Notes under the pieces: model-generated
Databases searched by the model: none
The model's input: only the letters and a program-made list of their open reading frames with translations
What the model was told of the DNA's origin: nothing
In this document: positions 34,405-48,279 of the stretch, one piece after another
Numbering within the stretch: position 1 is the stretch's first letter
Layout: each line of letters opens with the position of its first letter
IMG/VR virus record: IMGVR_UViG_3300021197_001752
Location: 32,001 to 96,000 of that record
DNA length: 64,000 nt
Direction: 5' to 3' (one strand)
Origin: a virus
Made by a program: the position numbers and the translations under genes

Positions 34405-35097
34405 TTATCTGCTTTCTTTTCTTGCTTCTAGATCAAGTTCTTCTAGTCTCTTATATAACACAGGACAGTCACGATGTAAAGTTTTATGATTGCCAAGATA
34501 ATATTGTTCAAAGCCAACTGCGAAGTATTCACGTAGTGACATTGCTTGATATGGTCTGATAAACATACCAGCAGTCATCATTTTAATCTTTTCTTTACCA
34601 ATCCTTTTATATAGAAATGTGTCAAACTCTGGATCATAAGCCACATCCTTGAAATCAAATTGTGTGTAATCATACCCATCGGCGGCGACTTCAAAACGTA
34701 GCTCCATTCGCTTCAGGTGAAATTCATCTCTGATTGCGTTATCGCCATATATAAAATCGTCATACAGAAATTCAGCATGGTGACCTATCTCGTGGATCAA
34801 ATCATCTAGCATGTCGGCATTGCTATCTTGTCGCTGTGCACTAACATATAAGATGTGATCATCTGACGAATACTTTGCGCTAATGTTTCTTTCCTCGAAC
34901 TCTTCTAGATCCAATACCTTGATACCATTAAGCTTCTTAAAATATGCACTTGGCACGGAGCCTTTGAGGGTGATTAGTACTTTAGATAGATTTATATCCT
35001 CTGGCATGTCTGAGGTGATTTCAATACCTACTTGGTTAATAGACATGTTTTCTCTGATAACGTTAGACGTTTTACGAATGTAACTTTCTGCGCTCAT
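34405..35097 (-). CDS. Zincin-like metallopeptidase
   Basis: HEIGH motif with downstream REYFAVGF. Confidence 0.65.
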   Translation of the reverse strand: MSAESYIRKTSNVIRENMSINQVGIEITSDMPEDINLSKVLITLKGSVPSAYFKKLNGIKVLDLEEFEERNISAKYSSDDHILYVSAQRQDSNADMLDDLIHEIGHHAEFLYDDFIYGDNAIRDEFHLKRMELRFEVAADGYDYTQFDFKDVAYDPEFDTFLYKRIGKEKIKMMTAGMFIRPYQAMSLREYFAVGFEQYYLGNHKTLHRDCPVLYKRLEELDLEARKESR

Positions 35098-36398
35098 TAT
35101 AGTATTTCCGCTGCTATACCTGCTAGCCTGCTTCTTTCTCCTTTTTTCAAAGTAACGTGTCCTGCAATATTATAGTCCTTAAACTTCTCTACTGCGTGTG
35201 TCAGACCGTTGGATACTGAATCAACATAGGAATTATCTATTTGCTCTACATCTCCCGTCAACACCAATTTAGTACCATCTCCAACTCTTGTTATTATAGT
35301 CTTTAATTCATGAGATGTTAAATTTTGTGCTTCATCTACTATTATAAAGGCGTTGGCAATAGATCGACCACGGATGTATGTCATTGCTTCAATTTCTACT
35401 GTTCCTTGTTCCATCTGTTCTTCTAGAGCCATGCGATTACCAAATAAGTATTCTAGATTATCTTTCAGTGGGGCAATCCATGGCATCATCTTTTCTTCCA
35501 ACGTTCCTGGGAGAAAACCAATATCTCTTCCCATAGGCTGTACAGGCCTAGTAACGATCAATCGGTCATAACCACCATTAGCTGCTGTGCTGTTGAGAAC
35601 TTGTTCTAGCCCACACGCTGCTGCTATAAGAGTTTTACCTGTACCCGCTTTTCCCGTCAATGATATTATATCAATGTTTCTGTCAAAAAGCAAGTCCATT
35701 GCAAACTTTTGTTCAGTATTTCTTGGTGACATTCCCCAAATCCTTTTATAGGTATTGATTTTTTGTAAGGGGGTGTGCTCATCCATATATCTTGTTATCG
35801 CAGATTTACTTTCGTCGTCATGCGCTTTGAGAGTAACAAACTGATTGGGATATAATTTATATCCTTCTGGTGCCTCTACTTCACCCTGTTGATAAAACTT
35901 ATCAATAGTTTCTGGTGGTACTTCTATTGTCACCTTGCCGTTATATAATCTATCAACTGATTCCACCACTTGAGCAGGCTGGTAATCATATGCCGCTACT
36001 CCGAATGCATCACACTTAACACGCATGTTGACATCACGAGATACTACCGCTACCTCACGACCTTCCATCTTGAGCCTAAGAGCAGTACAAATTATTTTAT
36101 TATCTGAGTCATCAGGGTTCATACCAACTGGCATATACCTTGGGTCATATTGCGCAGCGAACACTTTACCTAAGTTCTCAGATATTTCCACTCCTACAAA
36201 TAAGCTGCCCTTAGCTCTGAGTGAATCTAAGATTCTGTTCATAGTTCTAGCATTTAGACCTGCATTATCTTGCCTATGCTTATGCTTATCTATTTCATCT
36301 AAGACTATGGTTGGGATTGCAATGTTGTGTTTGCCAAATGAATATAGGGCTTTCACATCGGTGAGATACACGTTGGTATCGATAACTATAGTTTTCAT
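35097..36398 (-). CDS. phoH: PIN-domain plus PhoH ATPase (PhoH2/YlaK type)
   Basis: VIDTNV...EIDK.K...DNKII...SRDVNMRVK (PIN); GKAGTGKT, IGFLPG...KM.PW, RGRS, DEAQN, GD..QID. Confidence 0.93.
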   Translation of the reverse strand: MKTIVIDTNVYLTDVKALYSFGKHNIAIPTIVLDEIDKHKHRQDNAGLNARTMNRILDSLRAKGSLFVGVEISENLGKVFAAQYDPRYMPVGMNPDDSDNKIICTALRLKMEGREVAVVSRDVNMRVKCDAFGVAAYDYQPAQVVESVDRLYNGKVTIEVPPETIDKFYQQGEVEAPEGYKLYPNQFVTLKAHDDESKSAITRYMDEHTPLQKINTYKRIWGMSPRNTEQKFAMDLLFDRNIDIISLTGKAGTGKTLIAAACGLEQVLNSTAANGGYDRLIVTRPVQPMGRDIGFLPGTLEEKMMPWIAPLKDNLEYLFGNRMALEEQMEQGTVEIEAMTYIRGRSIANAFIIVDEAQNLTSHELKTIITRVGDGTKLVLTGDVEQIDNSYVDSVSNGLTHAVEKFKDYNIAGHVTLKKGERSRLAGIAAEIL

Positions 36399-36435: not shown

Positions 36436-36456
36436 AAAAGCCGCCCGAAGGCGGCT
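36436..36456 (-). terminator. Rho-independent terminator directly after tmRNA
   Basis: AGCCGCC-UUCG-GGCGGCU-UUU hairpin on the minus strand. Confidence 0.85.
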
Positions 36457-36780
36457 GGTGGAGGTAGGGGGAATCGAACCCCCGTCTTGTCTAGTTCCAC
36501 AGAAAGGTCATTCACAAGGTTAGGTCTGTTTTTATCGTCAGACAGCCCACTTGACTAGATCATTTTATTATGGCTAAGATGATCAAAAGCACTTATAGGA
36601 CAAAAATACGGCTTTCTGTTTCTTGGCTGCCGTCGCCTCAAGTTAAGTCAGGTTATTAAGCTGCTAATGCTAGTTGAAAATCGTCGTTTGCGATTAAAAG
36701 TTTAAGCGTTTTTAGTGAGCCACGCTTCCCTCACCCTTGCACCTTTTCTACTTCCCCATCAGTCGATACCGTTTACCCCC
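36456..36780 (-). ncRNA. ssrA: tmRNA (one-piece), encoded tag ANDDFQLALAA
   Basis: 5' GGGGGUA pairs with UACCUCC-A-CCA and includes G3.U; canonical T-arm GGGGG-UUCGAUU-CCCCC; tag ORF GCA AAC GAC GAT TTT CAA CTA GCA TTA GCA GCT TAA TAA at 36691-36653. Confidence 0.96.
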
Positions 36781-43516: not shown

Positions 43517-46045
43517 CTAGTAGATGTCGTATCCCGTACCGTTCCACATCAAGTTGACAGCAGCCATTGGTGAGGACATGGTAAGCGCAGCAAGACCGTC
43601 AAAGGTCATGTTGCTAGCACCAGAGCCTGTTAGGACGACAGCGCCGTCCGATAGACTTTGGTACTTGATAGTAAGCATCTTGCCAGCTTCACTTGCAGCG
43701 TGTACAGGCAAGAAGAGTTTAATATCTTCCGAACCTGATGGTGCGACTGCAAGGTAAGATGGGAAGTTAGCTGCACTAACACTACCCGACACAATGTGTA
43801 TTCTTGAACTGGAAACCAGACCGCCGATCAGATCGACGTTTGCTGGGTACTGAAGTGAGCCGCCCGCCAAGAATGACGATGAATGACCCAAGATCAATGA
43901 ACCAGATGTTCGCACGGTGCCACCAAGAACTTGGTGACCTGCTGACATGTTGGATGATACAGAATCACCCGCTGATGTAATACCACCAGCAGCCTGTACA
44001 ACACCTGCTGCACTAACAGTTAAGGCAGCAGTACCGCCCGAACCACCGACTGCAAGAGTGTCCATACCCACGTCACCGAAAGCACCTGAAGCAAACATTG
44101 ACATGCCAGTTCCTTGGACGTTGCGGAAACCAGAAATATCACTATCACTGTTTACAACAACAGCCTTAGATGCTGCAACTGAGCCAGCAGTAATATCATC
44201 AAGCTGCTCAAGGTCAGCTTCGTTGATCACAGCACTACCGATAGTAAAACCAGCAGCAGTGACAACACCTGAAGCACCAAGCGATGTTACACCAGTAACA
44301 GCACCACCAGCATTAACACCAACAGCGACAACTGCACCAGCAGCAGTAACTGTGAAGGCATCGTCAACATTAAGTCCGCCGTCAAAGGTACCAAGACCAC
44401 TAGCAGCAACTGTGGTTGCACCAGCAATGGCACCAGCAGCACTAATGCCACCACCTTGAAGTGCCAAGCTTGTACCACCTAGTGCATCAAATGTACCAGC
44501 AGCACCAGACAATGCACCTTCGACTGTACCATCACCCTGAACAGTAAGATCACCACCAGAGTCAATCTTCATTGCTTCACTACCAGAGAAAGCAAAGATC
44601 AATTCATCTTCAGCAGCATCATTGAAAGCAATTTCTGCAATTGATTTACCAGCGCCTGGACTTCCGAAGAAGATACCGCCGCCGTCTAGCTGCGAAGCAC
44701 CTGCTGAACCACTACCAATGATGATGCGAACATCTTCAACAGCCAATTCTGTTGCATTGGTGGTGACACGGTTGAAGGCACCTTGGATATCCACGTCACC
44801 CTTAATGGTGAGCTTGCCATCAGCCAATGTCAACAAATCAGCATCATCTGCATGACCGATTTGTACAGCGGTGATGTTACGGAAACCACCCGCATCCTTG
44901 TTAGCATCTACAACGACAGCCTTGTTAGCTGCAACTGTACCATTAGTGATACCGTCAAGCTTCTCAAGGTCAGCTTCGTTGAGATCAGCACTACCAATGA
45001 TAATGCTTGTACCAGCAGTAACGCTACCATCAAAAGCAGCATTGCCTAAGAACGTAGCATTGCCAGAACCTGAGACGGTTCTGCCGCTAATATCACGGGC
45101 ACCTGCGATATCGAGCGAGGCATCTAGGACCATTGCTTTACCAGCAGCGGCTGTACCATCAGTGATACCATCCAACTTCTCAAGGTCAGCTTCGCTCATG
45201 ACAGCACTACCAACGGTAAGACCGCCAGCAGTGAGAACACCTGCAACATTTGCAGTAGACTCAATGTCTAGAGTAAGACCAGAGACGGCCGCCGAAGCAG
45301 ATAGACCTGTTGCAACAACGTGAGTTGCACCAATCGTACCAGTGACGTTAACATTAGCATTGTGAGTAGCAACACCATGAGCGGTATTAGCAGCATGACT
45401 AATCAAGTTGCCTTTAACCTCTAGATCATCACCAACAAAAAGATCGGTGATTGAACCTGATGGTGAGCTAACGCTGACCGAACCAGTAACAGCAACAGCA
45501 GTTAAGCTGTTGAAGCTAGTAGCATCTTTAGTAGCATTTACAACGACCGCCTTAGAGGCTGCAACTGTACCAGCAGTAATACCATCAAGCTGCTCAAGGT
45601 CAGCTTCGCTCATGACAGCACTACCGATAGTAAAGCTGGTAGCAGCCGCAATTGTACCATTAACCGTTAGAGCACCATCTGCTAATTCTAACAAGTCGTT
45701 ATCGGCATTGACACCAATCTTGACCGCTTGGATCATTGATGCACCGAATGCACCAGTAACAGCAGTAACACCTGACATGTAAGTGCCAAGCTGTGCTAGA
45801 GATAGAACTTTATTGCTATCACTATCACTGTCATCCATAAGGATGAGTTCATCAGTGTGCGCTAGAGCACCGTCAGCACCGCCGCCTAGATTGTAGTTTG
45901 TACCAGCAGCTAGGTTTAGATCTGCAACATCGATTGACTTGTCGGCGAATTCAATACCACCTGAAAGTTGTAACTTATCATTAGCACCATCAAGAGCGAT
46001 AGTACCGTTGAGTCTCGCAAGACCCGATTGAAATTTATAAGCCAT
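43517..46045 (-). CDS. Gly/Ala/Ser-rich repetitive fibre-like virion protein
   Basis: 842 aa; strong AGGAGG RBS; four internal repeats; C-terminal domain shared with neighbouring genes. Confidence 0.75.
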   Translation of the reverse strand: MAYKFQSGLARLNGTIALDGANDKLQLSGGIEFADKSIDVADLNLAAGTNYNLGGGADGALAHTDELILMDDSDSDSNKVLSLAQLGTYMSGVTAVTGAFGASMIQAVKIGVNADNDLLELADGALTVNGTIAAATSFTIGSAVMSEADLEQLDGITAGTVAASKAVVVNATKDATSFNSLTAVAVTGSVSVSSPSGSITDLFVGDDLEVKGNLISHAANTAHGVATHNANVNVTGTIGATHVVATGLSASAAVSGLTLDIESTANVAGVLTAGGLTVGSAVMSEADLEKLDGITDGTAAAGKAMVLDASLDIAGARDISGRTVSGSGNATFLGNAAFDGSVTAGTSIIIGSADLNEADLEKLDGITNGTVAANKAVVVDANKDAGGFRNITAVQIGHADDADLLTLADGKLTIKGDVDIQGAFNRVTTNATELAVEDVRIIIGSGSAGASQLDGGGIFFGSPGAGKSIAEIAFNDAAEDELIFAFSGSEAMKIDSGGDLTVQGDGTVEGALSGAAGTFDALGGTSLALQGGGISAAGAIAGATTVAASGLGTFDGGLNVDDAFTVTAAGAVVAVGVNAGGAVTGVTSLGASGVVTAAGFTIGSAVINEADLEQLDDITAGSVAASKAVVVNSDSDISGFRNVQGTGMSMFASGAFGDVGMDTLAVGGSGGTAALTVSAAGVVQAAGGITSAGDSVSSNMSAGHQVLGGTVRTSGSLILGHSSSFLAGGSLQYPANVDLIGGLVSSSRIHIVSGSVSAANFPSYLAVAPSGSEDIKLFLPVHAASEAGKMLTIKYQSLSDGAVVLTGSGASNMTFDGLAALTMSSPMAAVNLMWNGTGYDIY
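44140..45640 (-). repeat. Four dispersed ~40-aa intragenic repeats (IGSAxxxEADLExLDxITxGxxAAxKAxVx)
   Basis: Copies near 44140-44250, 44895-45010, 45110-45230 and 45520-45640; the DNA core ctcaaggtcagcttcg is identical in all four. Confidence 0.9.
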
Positions 46046-47112: not shown

Positions 47113-47136
47113 AAAAAAGCCCCCTTTCGGGAGCTT
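47113..47136 (-). terminator. Terminator after the tRNA cluster
   Basis: AAGCUCCC-GAAA-GGGGGCUU-UUUU. Confidence 0.8.
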
Positions 47137-47144
47137 ATTGTGTT

Positions 47145-47220
47145 TGGTGCCCAAAGTAGGACTTGAACCTACAACCTTCGGTTTACAAAACCGCTGCTCT
47201 ACCAGTTGAGCCATTCGGGC
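47145..47220 (-). tRNA. tRNA-Thr(UGU)
   Basis: GCCCGAA...anticodon loop UUUGUAA...GGUUCAAGUCC...UUUGGGC-A-CCA. Confidence 0.95.
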
Positions 47221-47221
47221 A

Positions 47222-47298
47222 TGGTAGTCCACCGAGGAATCGAACCTCGAACCTACTGATTATGAGTCAGTTGCTCTAACCAATTGAGCTAGTGGACC
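47222..47298 (-). tRNA. tRNA with CAU anticodon, probably tRNA-Ile2 (lysidine substrate)
   Basis: Canonical cloverleaf; loop CUCAUAA; C4-G69 and C5-G68 pairs; no initiator features; 9 nt downstream of tilS. Confidence 0.85.
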
Positions 47299-47307
47299 AC
47301 AGTTCTG

Positions 47308-47910
47308 TTAGTTGTTATTATACCTGCTTTCTACAATTTTTTTAAATGTTTTTTGGATACCTGGGTTAATTTCTTTTGCAACGGGCATCATGTCATGTCT
47401 AATAATACTTCTCATAAACTTTCTATTATTATTGCCAGGGTCAGTTAGGAAAGGAACATTCTTCCGTGTGCACCAGTCAACTAAGTTTTGTTTTGAGGTA
47501 GATAAGAAAGGACGGATAACATTTTTATTTTGATAAGGGATAAACTTTCCTTTACCATGTACAGATGAAAATAGAAACCACTCAATAACGTCGTCTAAAT
47601 TATGTCCAGTTACAATGGGTAGTTTATAGTCATGAAATCGCTTGTAGCGTTCATCCCGCCAGTGCTCCTCAAGTGACTTGCCGCTTGGACGAGATTCTGA
47701 TAAAACGCTGGTTACAAATGGGATTTTCTTACCTGCGCAATAGCTTCTAAGAAAGTGATAAGCTTCGTCGCCAAAGGTTGTACCATGATCAAAATAGTAT
47801 GCTGTAACATTATGATTATTATTAAGGAAATCTAAGATAGCCATAGAATCAGGACCACCACTAACGGCGACTACTAACTCCCTGGGTAACTTCCCTAAAA
47901 CTTTCAGCAT
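47308..47910 (-). CDS. tilS: tRNA(Ile)-lysidine synthetase, catalytic domain only
   Basis: AVSGGPDS (PP-loop), R..RY, GHNLDD..E, IRPFL, D..N...R..IRH. Confidence 0.92.
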   Translation of the reverse strand: MLKVLGKLPRELVVAVSGGPDSMAILDFLNNNHNVTAYYFDHGTTFGDEAYHFLRSYCAGKKIPFVTSVLSESRPSGKSLEEHWRDERYKRFHDYKLPIVTGHNLDDVIEWFLFSSVHGKGKFIPYQNKNVIRPFLSTSKQNLVDWCTRKNVPFLTDPGNNNRKFMRSIIRHDMMPVAKEINPGIQKTFKKIVESRYNNN

Positions 47911-47922
47911 CTCGAAACTCCT

Positions 47923-47999
47923 TGGTGATCCAGGCAGGATTTGAACCTGCGACCCACGGTTTAGAAGACCGTTGCTCTATCCAACTGAGCTACTGGACC
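47923..47999 (-). tRNA. tRNA-Arg(UCU)
   Basis: Canonical cloverleaf; ACGGU-CUUCUAA-ACCGU anticodon arm; A20; encoded CCA. Confidence 0.95.
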
Positions 48000-48004
48000 A
48001 TATG

Positions 48005-48079
48005 TGGAGCGGATGGTAGGACTCTCACCTACGTCTTTTGAATGGTATCCAAACGCTTTGATCCCTAAGCTACATCCGC
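48005..48079 (-). tRNA. Non-canonical tRNA-Gly(ACC)
   Basis: GCGGAUG/CAUCCGC-U-CCA acceptor; D-stem GCUU/AAGC; anticodon arm UUUGG-AUACCAU-UCAAA; T-arm GUAGG-UGAGAGU-CCUAC, lacking UUC. Confidence 0.8.
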
Positions 48080-48084
48080 AAAAG

Positions 48085-48170
48085 TGAAGAGTTTTCGCCC
48101 AAGTACGCTTAGGGCTCCTGTCCATATTTGTATCTAACCCTACAAACCGTTTTCCACACGCAACTCTTCA
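48085..48170 (-). ncRNA. Candidate structured RNA (four-way junction) upstream of tRNA-Gly
   Basis: 9-bp closing stem UGAAGAGUU/AACUCUUCA encloses hairpins CGU/ACG, UUUGUA/UACAAA and GCCC(U)AAG/CUUGGGC. Confidence 0.4.
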
Positions 48171-48279
48171 AAGGTATGTGGTTACTGAAGGTAGGGACGC
48201 TGGCTCTTTATGCTTCCTGCCAGATCGGTTCGGGTTTAGCCCTGACACTTATCTTCGTCTTGTGTATTTATTTTTCATT

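Follow-up and report, generated by a model that had tools for sequence, protein, structure and literature searches.

A34 is stated never to have been seen in the tRNA-Gly of any kingdom, phages lacking the same anticodons as bacteria (PMC7293025, PMC8007984), and tRNA-Gly(ACC) is presented as the only A34 tRNA of a four-codon box that is universally absent (bioRxiv 10.64898/2026.05.15.725136); by these three accounts, it is the one such tRNA missing from all life, phages too. Once engineered, however, a tRNA-Gly(ACC) accepts its amino acid and functions in translation, as relayed by two sources that both cite Boren 1993 (PMC4928997; bioRxiv 10.64898/2026.05.15.725136), and overexpression of Gly-tRNA(ACC) slows the growth of E. 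coli (bioRxiv 10.64898/2026.05.15.725136). In staphylococci, the non-proteinogenic tRNA-Gly species NP1-3 serve FmhB, FemA and FemB and bind EF-Tu poorly; they harbour UGC or UGU in the T-loop, lack G18-G19, and carry the T-stem pairs A49-U65, U50-A64 and A51-U63 (PMC7826273). Gly-tRNA-Gly is also the co-substrate of the Mom protein of bacteriophage Mu, a GNAT that moves glycine to the N6 of adenine in DNA and accepts every host tRNA-Gly isoacceptor (PMC13219725). With regard to the T-loop, motifs outside tRNA follow the consensus UGNRA and, as a rule, receive an intercalated adenosine between their fourth and fifth bases (bioRxiv 10.1101/2022.12.26.521914; PMC2615604).

The window, namely the whole stretch of 64,000 nucleotides that was analysed, covers positions 32001-96000 of an IMG/VR virus record that measures 146.7 kb and has a completeness of about 81%. 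Nearly all genes are carried by the minus strand, and baseplate, PhoH and glycosyltransferase proteins are encoded. For one protein, the closest cultured relatives are non-T4 Synechococcus myophages (47-49% identity), and the sequencing runs that contain the stretch are marine. A full-length tmRNA (36456-36780, minus strand; Rfam 93.5 bits, model positions 1-374), unreported by ARAGORN, is followed on the coding strand, just downstream, by a gene for a PIN-domain/PhoH fusion of 433 residues (35097-36398, minus strand).

The gene under study (48005..48079, minus strand) is 75 nt long, with an encoded CCA, and ARAGORN calls it tRNA-Gly with the anticodon acc, which confirms the assignment for which an earlier note, made from the sequence alone, had suggested such a scan. 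With Rfam RF00005, whose gathering threshold is 29, it scores 56.5 bits (E 1.6e-9 when the window is searched), which is the lowest score of four tRNAs, the three neighbouring ones reaching 70-73 bits. The acceptor stem has seven pairs, including G1-C72, C2-G71 and G3-C70, and is followed by U73 and the encoded CCA. The D stem (GCUU/AAGC) carries the D-loop AGGGAUCA, the anticodon stem (UUUGG/UCAAA) includes a G31.U39 pair, the variable loop counts 4 nt, and the T stem (GUAGG/CCUAC) closes a UGAGAGU loop. All 21 stem pairs are intact. The three acceptor pairs mentioned above, together with C35, C36 and U73, are the identity elements of bacterial glycyl-tRNA synthetase (GlyRS), and the set is complete here. 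Position 34 is not read by GlyRS (PMC4928997). The stems, identity elements, CCA and loops listed in the earlier note are thus all present in the sequence, and its view that intact stems speak against plain decay is supported, with the identity elements adding to it. The same note had listed the A at position 32 among the deviations. It is not a defect: in the anticodon loop AUACCAU (A32, U33, A34, C35, C36, A37, U38), A32 and U38 can pair, and the ability to form a 32-38 pair is a tendency of bacterial tRNAs with strong anticodons (PMC7293025). The tRNA-Gly(ACC) gene is real. Descent from a neighbouring phage tRNA was considered and rejected, as identity with these tRNAs is only about 55-60%.

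The gene resides in an 80-nt insertion (48004..48083, minus strand) in which a UUUU leader is followed by the tRNA and a single base, flanked by a 3-nt CAC repeat and with a boundary ambiguous by 3 nt. It was delimited by alignment with two viral contigs, L005 and L006, by the sequences of L007-L009 and by a contig of sequencing run X5. Six related viral contigs have the TilS gene in common with the phage (70-92% identity), and none of the six has a tRNA at the insertion site; in the near-complete relatives G001 and G005, tRNA-Gly was not found anywhere in either genome. The flanks are about 97% identical to those of L005 and L006, the closest relatives, and a single clean block of 80 nt differs. 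In the more distant L007-L009, the spacing from leader to tRNA-Arg is also 7 nt. Given relatives devoid of the insertion and this conserved spacing, parsimony favours a recent gain of tRNA-Gly(ACC) by the phage lineage. The earlier note had reserved the case in which relatives carry a canonical tRNA-Gly(GCC/UCC) at the locus, a point that does not apply as posed, the relatives having no tRNA there at all.

Contigs from two different marine studies (2024 and 2021), either of which could include the source sample of the record, span positions 47965-48156 and 47973-48156 with zero differences; because of this identity, the gene is not an assembly artefact. In run X5, which belongs to one of these studies, a contig joins position 48003 to 48084, that is, the allele without insertion, so that both alleles occur in the same sample, the insertion-free one at the higher contig depth. 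Searches for a donor or homologue came back empty: blastn against 50,697 phage records gave no match at E <= 1, viral contigs scanned with exact and degenerate patterns contained none, metagenome contigs yielded eight chance matches, none of them a tRNA, and species genomes returned nothing beyond tRNAs for Pro, Ile, Met, Leu and Trp, which are unrelated but have the T-arm and acceptor in common. No assembled contig of the metatranscriptome run X15 or the DNA run X6 spans the tRNA-Gly, which is uninformative either way.

On the minus strand, the order of elements is micro-ORF, leader, tRNA-Gly(ACC), tRNA-Arg(UCU), the gene for a TilS N-terminal domain, tRNA(CAU), tRNA-Thr(UGU) and a hairpin, the tRNA-Gly being inserted between the conserved leader and tRNA-Arg. 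The conserved, non-coding leader of about 165 nt, together with a 9-codon micro-ORF (48249-48278, MKNKYTRRR*), occupies 48084..48278 (minus strand). The leader has been preserved almost letter by letter in the six relatives, to a far greater degree than the genes on either side. The micro-ORF ends in T-R-R-R-stop, with Arg codons that vary synonymously (AGA, CGT, CGA, CGG), and the leader contains one hairpin with compensatory changes and matches no Rfam family. In marine runs, contigs over 48120-48272 reach 10-50 times the depth seen for neighbouring genes, and positions 48130-48257 are also spanned by a contig from a metatranscriptome. The canonical tRNA-Arg(UCU) (47923..47999, minus strand; ARAGORN and Rfam), present in all relatives, lies 5 nt downstream of tRNA-Gly.

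The next gene codes for a 200-residue protein with the TilS N-terminal (PP-loop) domain (47308..47910, minus strand; Pfam PF01171, 3.6e-30; TIGR02432, 112.5 bits for a cut-off of 93.6). Jumbo phages of Pseudomonas, e.g. PA5oct, encode homologues of this TilS with 40% identity. The adjoining tRNA with a CAU anticodon (47222..47298, minus strand) was called Met by ARAGORN and is recognised by Rfam. Since it adjoins the TilS gene and ATA makes up 34% of the Ile codons, it is probably a lysidine-dependent tRNA-Ile2, and the phage would probably bring both an ATA-reading tRNA-Ile2 and its maturation enzyme, lysidine synthase. The final gene of the block, tRNA-Thr(UGU) (47145..47220, minus strand; ARAGORN and Rfam), is directly followed by a terminator-like hairpin with a T-run (47117..47136, minus strand), which likely marks the end of the tRNA transcription unit.

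How exceptional is the anticodon among viruses? IMG/VR was scanned with a restrictive pattern (ACC anticodon, canonical T-loop, CGCUCCA end), which returned 107 viral contigs with tRNA-Gly(ACC), 101 of them confirmed by ARAGORN. The confirmed genes represent 44 distinct sequences in 26 clusters; 98% of the cells of their alignment pair compared with 66% in shuffles, compensatory changes affect 20 of the 21 pairs, and ACC is retained inside clusters that have diverged to 79% identity. Judged by this alignment, tRNA-Gly(ACC) is a recurrent, structurally constrained viral class. The window gene, like the class, combines the ACC anticodon with a Gly-type body, and the proposal that A34 marks a decoy is not sustained, as such tRNAs recur under structural constraint in viral contigs. 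The one cultured phage checked, Synechococcus phage S-H9-1, has tRNA-Gly(UCC). In other respects, the related contig L008 carries another A34 anticodon, in a tRNA-Ser(AGA) (L008:4770-4857, plus strand), where two other relatives have tRNA-Ser(GGA); the two differ at many positions, hence the former is no simple point mutant. As for a phage deaminase of the TadA type acting on A34, the sole CDA-fold protein (G000:135415-135825, 136 residues) was rejected because it is dCMP-deaminase-like, its nearest counterparts being T4 and cyanophage dCMP deaminases, and is conserved in relatives without an A34 tRNA.

The second unusual feature is the elbow. Eight of twelve near-universal bases are kept (U8, A14, A21, U33, G53, U54, A58 and C61), as is the G15-C48 pair. 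The four that deviate, at positions 18, 19, 55 and 56, are those that make the contact between D-loop and T-loop, and by our count the chance that deviations hit exactly these four of the twelve is 1 in 495. The canonical elbow (G18, G19, pseudouridine from U55, C56) is consequently absent. In the T-loop, U54, R57, A58 and G53-C61 are kept, and positions 55-56 are changed from UC to GA. The resulting U54 G55 A56 G57 A58, closed by G53-C61, displays U at position 1, G (U/G in the motif) at position 2, a purine at position 4, A at position 5 and a G-C closure, and thus fits the T-loop motif as far as the bases go. The T-loop of the TPP riboswitch is UGAGA too. The earlier statement that this tRNA has no T-psi-C loop was therefore too strong, UGAGA being a standard T-loop motif sequence.

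The D-loop AGGGAUCA has 8 bases, as in yeast tRNA-Phe, and alignment in that register gives A18 and U19. A18 could then intercalate, and U19 could pair with A56, the two replacing G18-G19. This register is one of three possible, and MAFFT prefers another that gives G18 and A19. We infer an elbow that is rewired yet coherent, and not lost. A scan for ACC with a UGARA T-loop produced one additional case on viral contig L265, a Gly-type ACC RNA with the T-loop UGAAAGU and a 4-nt, GG-less D-loop, AAUC. This RNA (L265:2696-2767, minus strand) has perfect acceptor, anticodon and T stems and a reduced D-arm, and was missed by both ARAGORN and Rfam. It hints weakly at the elbow change (ACC with UGARA and a D-loop A-U) as a recurrent solution, the scan having covered the UGARA form of positions 55-56.

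Taken together, we tentatively favour, with slightly less than an even chance of being right, a phage tRNA that can be charged, decodes GGU and adds to the supply of Gly-tRNA. It would be co-transcribed with the leader RNA, tRNA-Arg, tilS, tRNA(CAU) and tRNA-Thr, excised by RNase P and 3' trimming, and charged by the host glycyl-tRNA synthetase through its complete identity set. A34-C35-C36 would pair with GGU in Watson-Crick geometry, and an unmodified A34 may read other GGN codons as well. In the T-loop, the UUCRA sequence typical of tRNA would have given way to the general type (UGNRA), with a D-loop A intercalating and a D-loop U pairing with A56 in place of G18 and G19. Such a rewiring would leave no pseudouridine 55, this tRNA should go unrecognised by enzymes dependent on U54-U55, and its binding to EF-Tu is possibly weaker than usual for tRNA-Gly.

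Codon usage is consistent with a decoding role. GGT is the commonest Gly codon of the phage (39%), and each of the four phage tRNAs fits the top codon of its family (AGA 39%, ATA 34%, ACA 37%, GGT 39%). A repeat-rich, Gly-rich (14.5%) protein of 842 residues (43517..46045, minus strand) uses GGT at 94 of its 122 Gly codons (77%) and GGG at none; its gene, located 2 kb downstream of tRNA-Gly, is the biggest single-gene user of GGU relative to length, and the homologue in the nearest relative is less extreme (81 of 118 Gly codons). The protein is rich in Ala, Gly, Ser, Thr and Val, with the repeated motif GSAVMSEADLE.LDGIT.GT.AA.KAVV, and has no match in Pfam. The GC content of its gene is about 48% compared with 39%, and this high GC, together with the extreme codon bias, suggests a highly expressed structural or fibre protein. 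The tRNA probably supplies glycine to such GGU-rich phage genes, and the extra Gly-tRNA may also feed the Mom-family transferase of the phage described below. The mention in the earlier note of GGU decoding in Gly-rich genes is supported both by GGU being the commonest Gly codon and by the presence of the GGU-rich gene nearby.

Several observations weigh against a working tRNA. The gene is confined to a single lineage, so that neither conservation nor covariation is demonstrable for the window sequence itself, and six relatives with the same codon habits manage without it. The T-stem pairs U50-A64 and A51-U63 are those of the EF-Tu-avoiding staphylococcal tRNAs (PMC7826273), and G55 in the absence of G18-G19 is a signature of these tRNAs too. 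The D-loop register that allows U19-A56 is, as mentioned, not the one favoured by MAFFT, and the slower growth of E. coli overexpressing Gly-tRNA(ACC) is also unfavourable. Across 2,540 conserved Gly sites, G000, the phage genome, has more GGT than G001 (423 versus 355 changes, p = 0.016); however, Ser TCT and Leu CTT shift in the same direction, with Val GTT moving in the opposite one. As Ser and Leu shift towards T likewise, the GGT excess is unspecific and was not counted as adaptation to the tRNA, and codon co-adaptation was rejected.

The main competing explanation starts from the possibility, raised in the earlier note, that the tRNA donates glycine to a tRNA-dependent transferase. Its Fem-type form found no support: in the 146.7-kb record (about 81% complete), PF02388 and PF13480 gave no match at E <= 1, and no Fem-like GNAT was found. 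A GNAT of the Mom family is present, however, encoded outside the window, 31 kb from tRNA-Gly (G000:C1:111013-112032, minus strand; locus L266:1153-2172). This 339-residue protein matches Pfam PF25680 with 48 bits for a cut-off of 27.1. It has N- and C-terminal extensions, and marine metagenomes contain at least 542 homologues, some of which lie on contigs 186-191 kb in length; no tRNA occurs in the 21-kb stretch L268 of one 191-kb record with a Mom homologue (P0029). Based on an alignment with 8BV8 and a four-protein alignment, an R and an S of the phage protein, with the same 13-residue spacing, would be the equivalents of R111 and S124 of Mu Mom. The tRNA could thus be a dedicated glycine carrier, mainly for the Mom-family enzyme: it would be charged by GlyRS, its elbow and weak T-stem would keep it away from EF-Tu and the ribosome, and its glycine would go to adenines of the phage DNA as a protection against host restriction, a counterpart of the staphylococcal tRNA-Gly/Fem couple. 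We regard this as somewhat unlikely.

In favour of such a carrier, the catalytic residues of an enzyme family whose Mu member uses Gly-tRNA-Gly (PMC13219725) appear to be kept, and U54-G55, the missing G18-G19, U50-A64 and A51-U63 are as in the staphylococcal tRNAs (PMC7826273). Furthermore, Mom occurs in 9 of 100 viral records with tRNA-Gly(ACC), eight of them above the cut-off, and in none of 99 control records with a non-A34 tRNA-Gly, even though the latter set exceeds the former in length and completeness; the one-sided Fisher p of about 0.002, by our own calculation, is uncorrected for relatedness or habitat. In the Mom-positive records, which fall into six tRNA clusters, Mom lies 0.06-8 kb from the tRNA. 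One such case is an unrelated 5-kb viral contig (L071:3991-4954, plus strand), with a strong Mom homologue (160 bits) and, 60 nt past its stop, a tRNA-Gly(ACC) whose D-loop counts 3 nt and whose anticodon loop, AUACCAU, is that of the window tRNA.

Other findings run counter to the carrier. The two genes of this phage are 31 kb apart, the tRNA being placed within a tRNA block, and they are not inherited together: this Mom gene is also present in the nearest relative, G001, which lacks a phage tRNA-Gly, and G005 has neither. Four large near-complete genomes with an ACC tRNA (G018, G121, G105 and G123) are devoid of Mom. A private tRNA is not needed by Mom if any host isoacceptor serves, as for Mu Mom (PMC13219725). 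The Mom-linked ACC tRNAs of other contigs have canonical T-loops, so that linkage to Mom does not go with an unusual elbow, and a donor role leaves the A at position 34 unexplained. The fullest version of the idea, in which a private off-ribosome glycine carrier with a riboswitch-type T-loop feeds a DNA-glycylating Mom enzyme, as a viral re-invention of the staphylococcal split, and tRNA-Gly(ACC) is a regular phage tool partly tied to DNA hypermodification, we consider unlikely.

A neutral or decaying passenger, i.e. a tRNA gene acquired by illegitimate recombination, with drifting elbow and anticodon, without role and bound to be lost, seems improbable. Its restriction to one lineage, the higher contig depth of the insertion-free allele in the same sample, the empty donor and homologue searches in phage records, viral contigs, metagenomes and species genomes, and an Rfam score below those of the other three phage tRNAs would all agree with a passenger, as would the stunted D-arm of L265, the only other UGARA example, which escaped ARAGORN and Rfam. 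Against it stand the 21 intact stem pairs with all glycine identity elements, the identity of the gene in the 2021 and 2024 data sets, and the confinement of the deviations to four mutually contacting elbow positions, where they produce a known T-loop sequence. Finally, to our knowledge no nuclease is aimed at tRNA-Gly, and a tRNA or decoy hardened against nucleases, in which U55G and C56A would resist UUC-needing enzymes and the odd anticodon loop would escape anticodon nucleases, is very improbable: prokaryotic Schlafen (Cash) nucleases do cut tRNA chiefly at the UUC of the T-loop, and mutating U54 or U55 alone abolishes cleavage (PMC13462974), and escape from host anticodon nucleases has been proposed for phage tRNAs with altered anticodon loops (PMC10264068), but the other three phage tRNAs keep UUC T-loops, so a broad T-loop nuclease would still stop translation.

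The viral tRNA-Gly(ACC), recurrent and structurally constrained, offers natural material on why cells avoid this tRNA. The elbow of the window copy would be a natural variant in which both D-loop/T-loop contacts are replaced together, with a T-loop otherwise found in riboswitches and rRNA, and as such a test of the degree to which a usable tRNA depends on the 'universal' GG/T-psi-C signature. Since the insertion-bearing and insertion-free alleles coexist in nature, they represent a ready-made comparison. The co-occurrence with a Mom-family enzyme points to a possible link to DNA modification; if tRNA and Mom were functionally tied, the activated glycine needed for DNA hypermodification would come from a source that phages maintain themselves.

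When compared with known systems, the window tRNA shares with the elongator tRNA-Gly of phages (T4-type UCC, GCC) the cloverleaf, the glycine identity set, the encoded CCA, the location in a multi-tRNA transcription unit and an anticodon for a favoured codon. It differs from them by the ACC anticodon, by UGAGAGU instead of UUCRANY, by the absence of G18-G19 in the usual register, and by having no detectable sequence relative in the 50,697 phage records. Closer in anticodon is the viral tRNA-Gly(ACC) class, which likewise has ACC and a Gly-type acceptor ending in U73-CCA; four distinct members have the same AUACCAU loop, and in the L048/L122 family the anticodon arm and variable loop match the window copy at 20 of 23 positions (by eye). 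Overall identity of the window copy to any member is low, and whereas the 101 confirmed members all have UUCRA T-loops, as demanded by the pattern, and nearly all have the D-loop GG, the window copy is rewired.

The likeness to the staphylococcal non-proteinogenic tRNA-Gly put forward in the earlier note is partial. U54-G55, the absence of G18-G19 in the usual register and, among the three T-stem pairs on which EF-Tu affinity depends, U50-A64 and A51-U63 are common to both (PMC7826273), as is a genome with a Gly-tRNA-dependent transferase. The window tRNA, in contrast, has G49-C65 in place of A-U, A56 in place of C or U, and ACC in place of UCC, and it stands outside the staphylococcal lineage; the enzyme is of the Mom family and not Fem, the setting is a phage of a marine bacterium, and the two systems are not homologous. 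Bacteriophage Mu Mom (PDB 8BV8) shares with the phage protein the Pfam Mom family and, putatively, the catalytic residues. The phage protein is divergent (48 bits), with extra N- and C-terminal parts and a gene distant from the tRNA, and whereas Mu encodes no tRNA and draws on whichever host isoacceptor is present, the window phage encodes a tRNA-Gly. Lastly, U-G-A-G-A matches the UGNRA T-loop motif of riboswitches (TPP, FMN, cobalamin) and rRNA, with an adenine available to intercalate; unlike those T-loops, it sits in the T-arm of a tRNA, where UUCRA is almost invariant.
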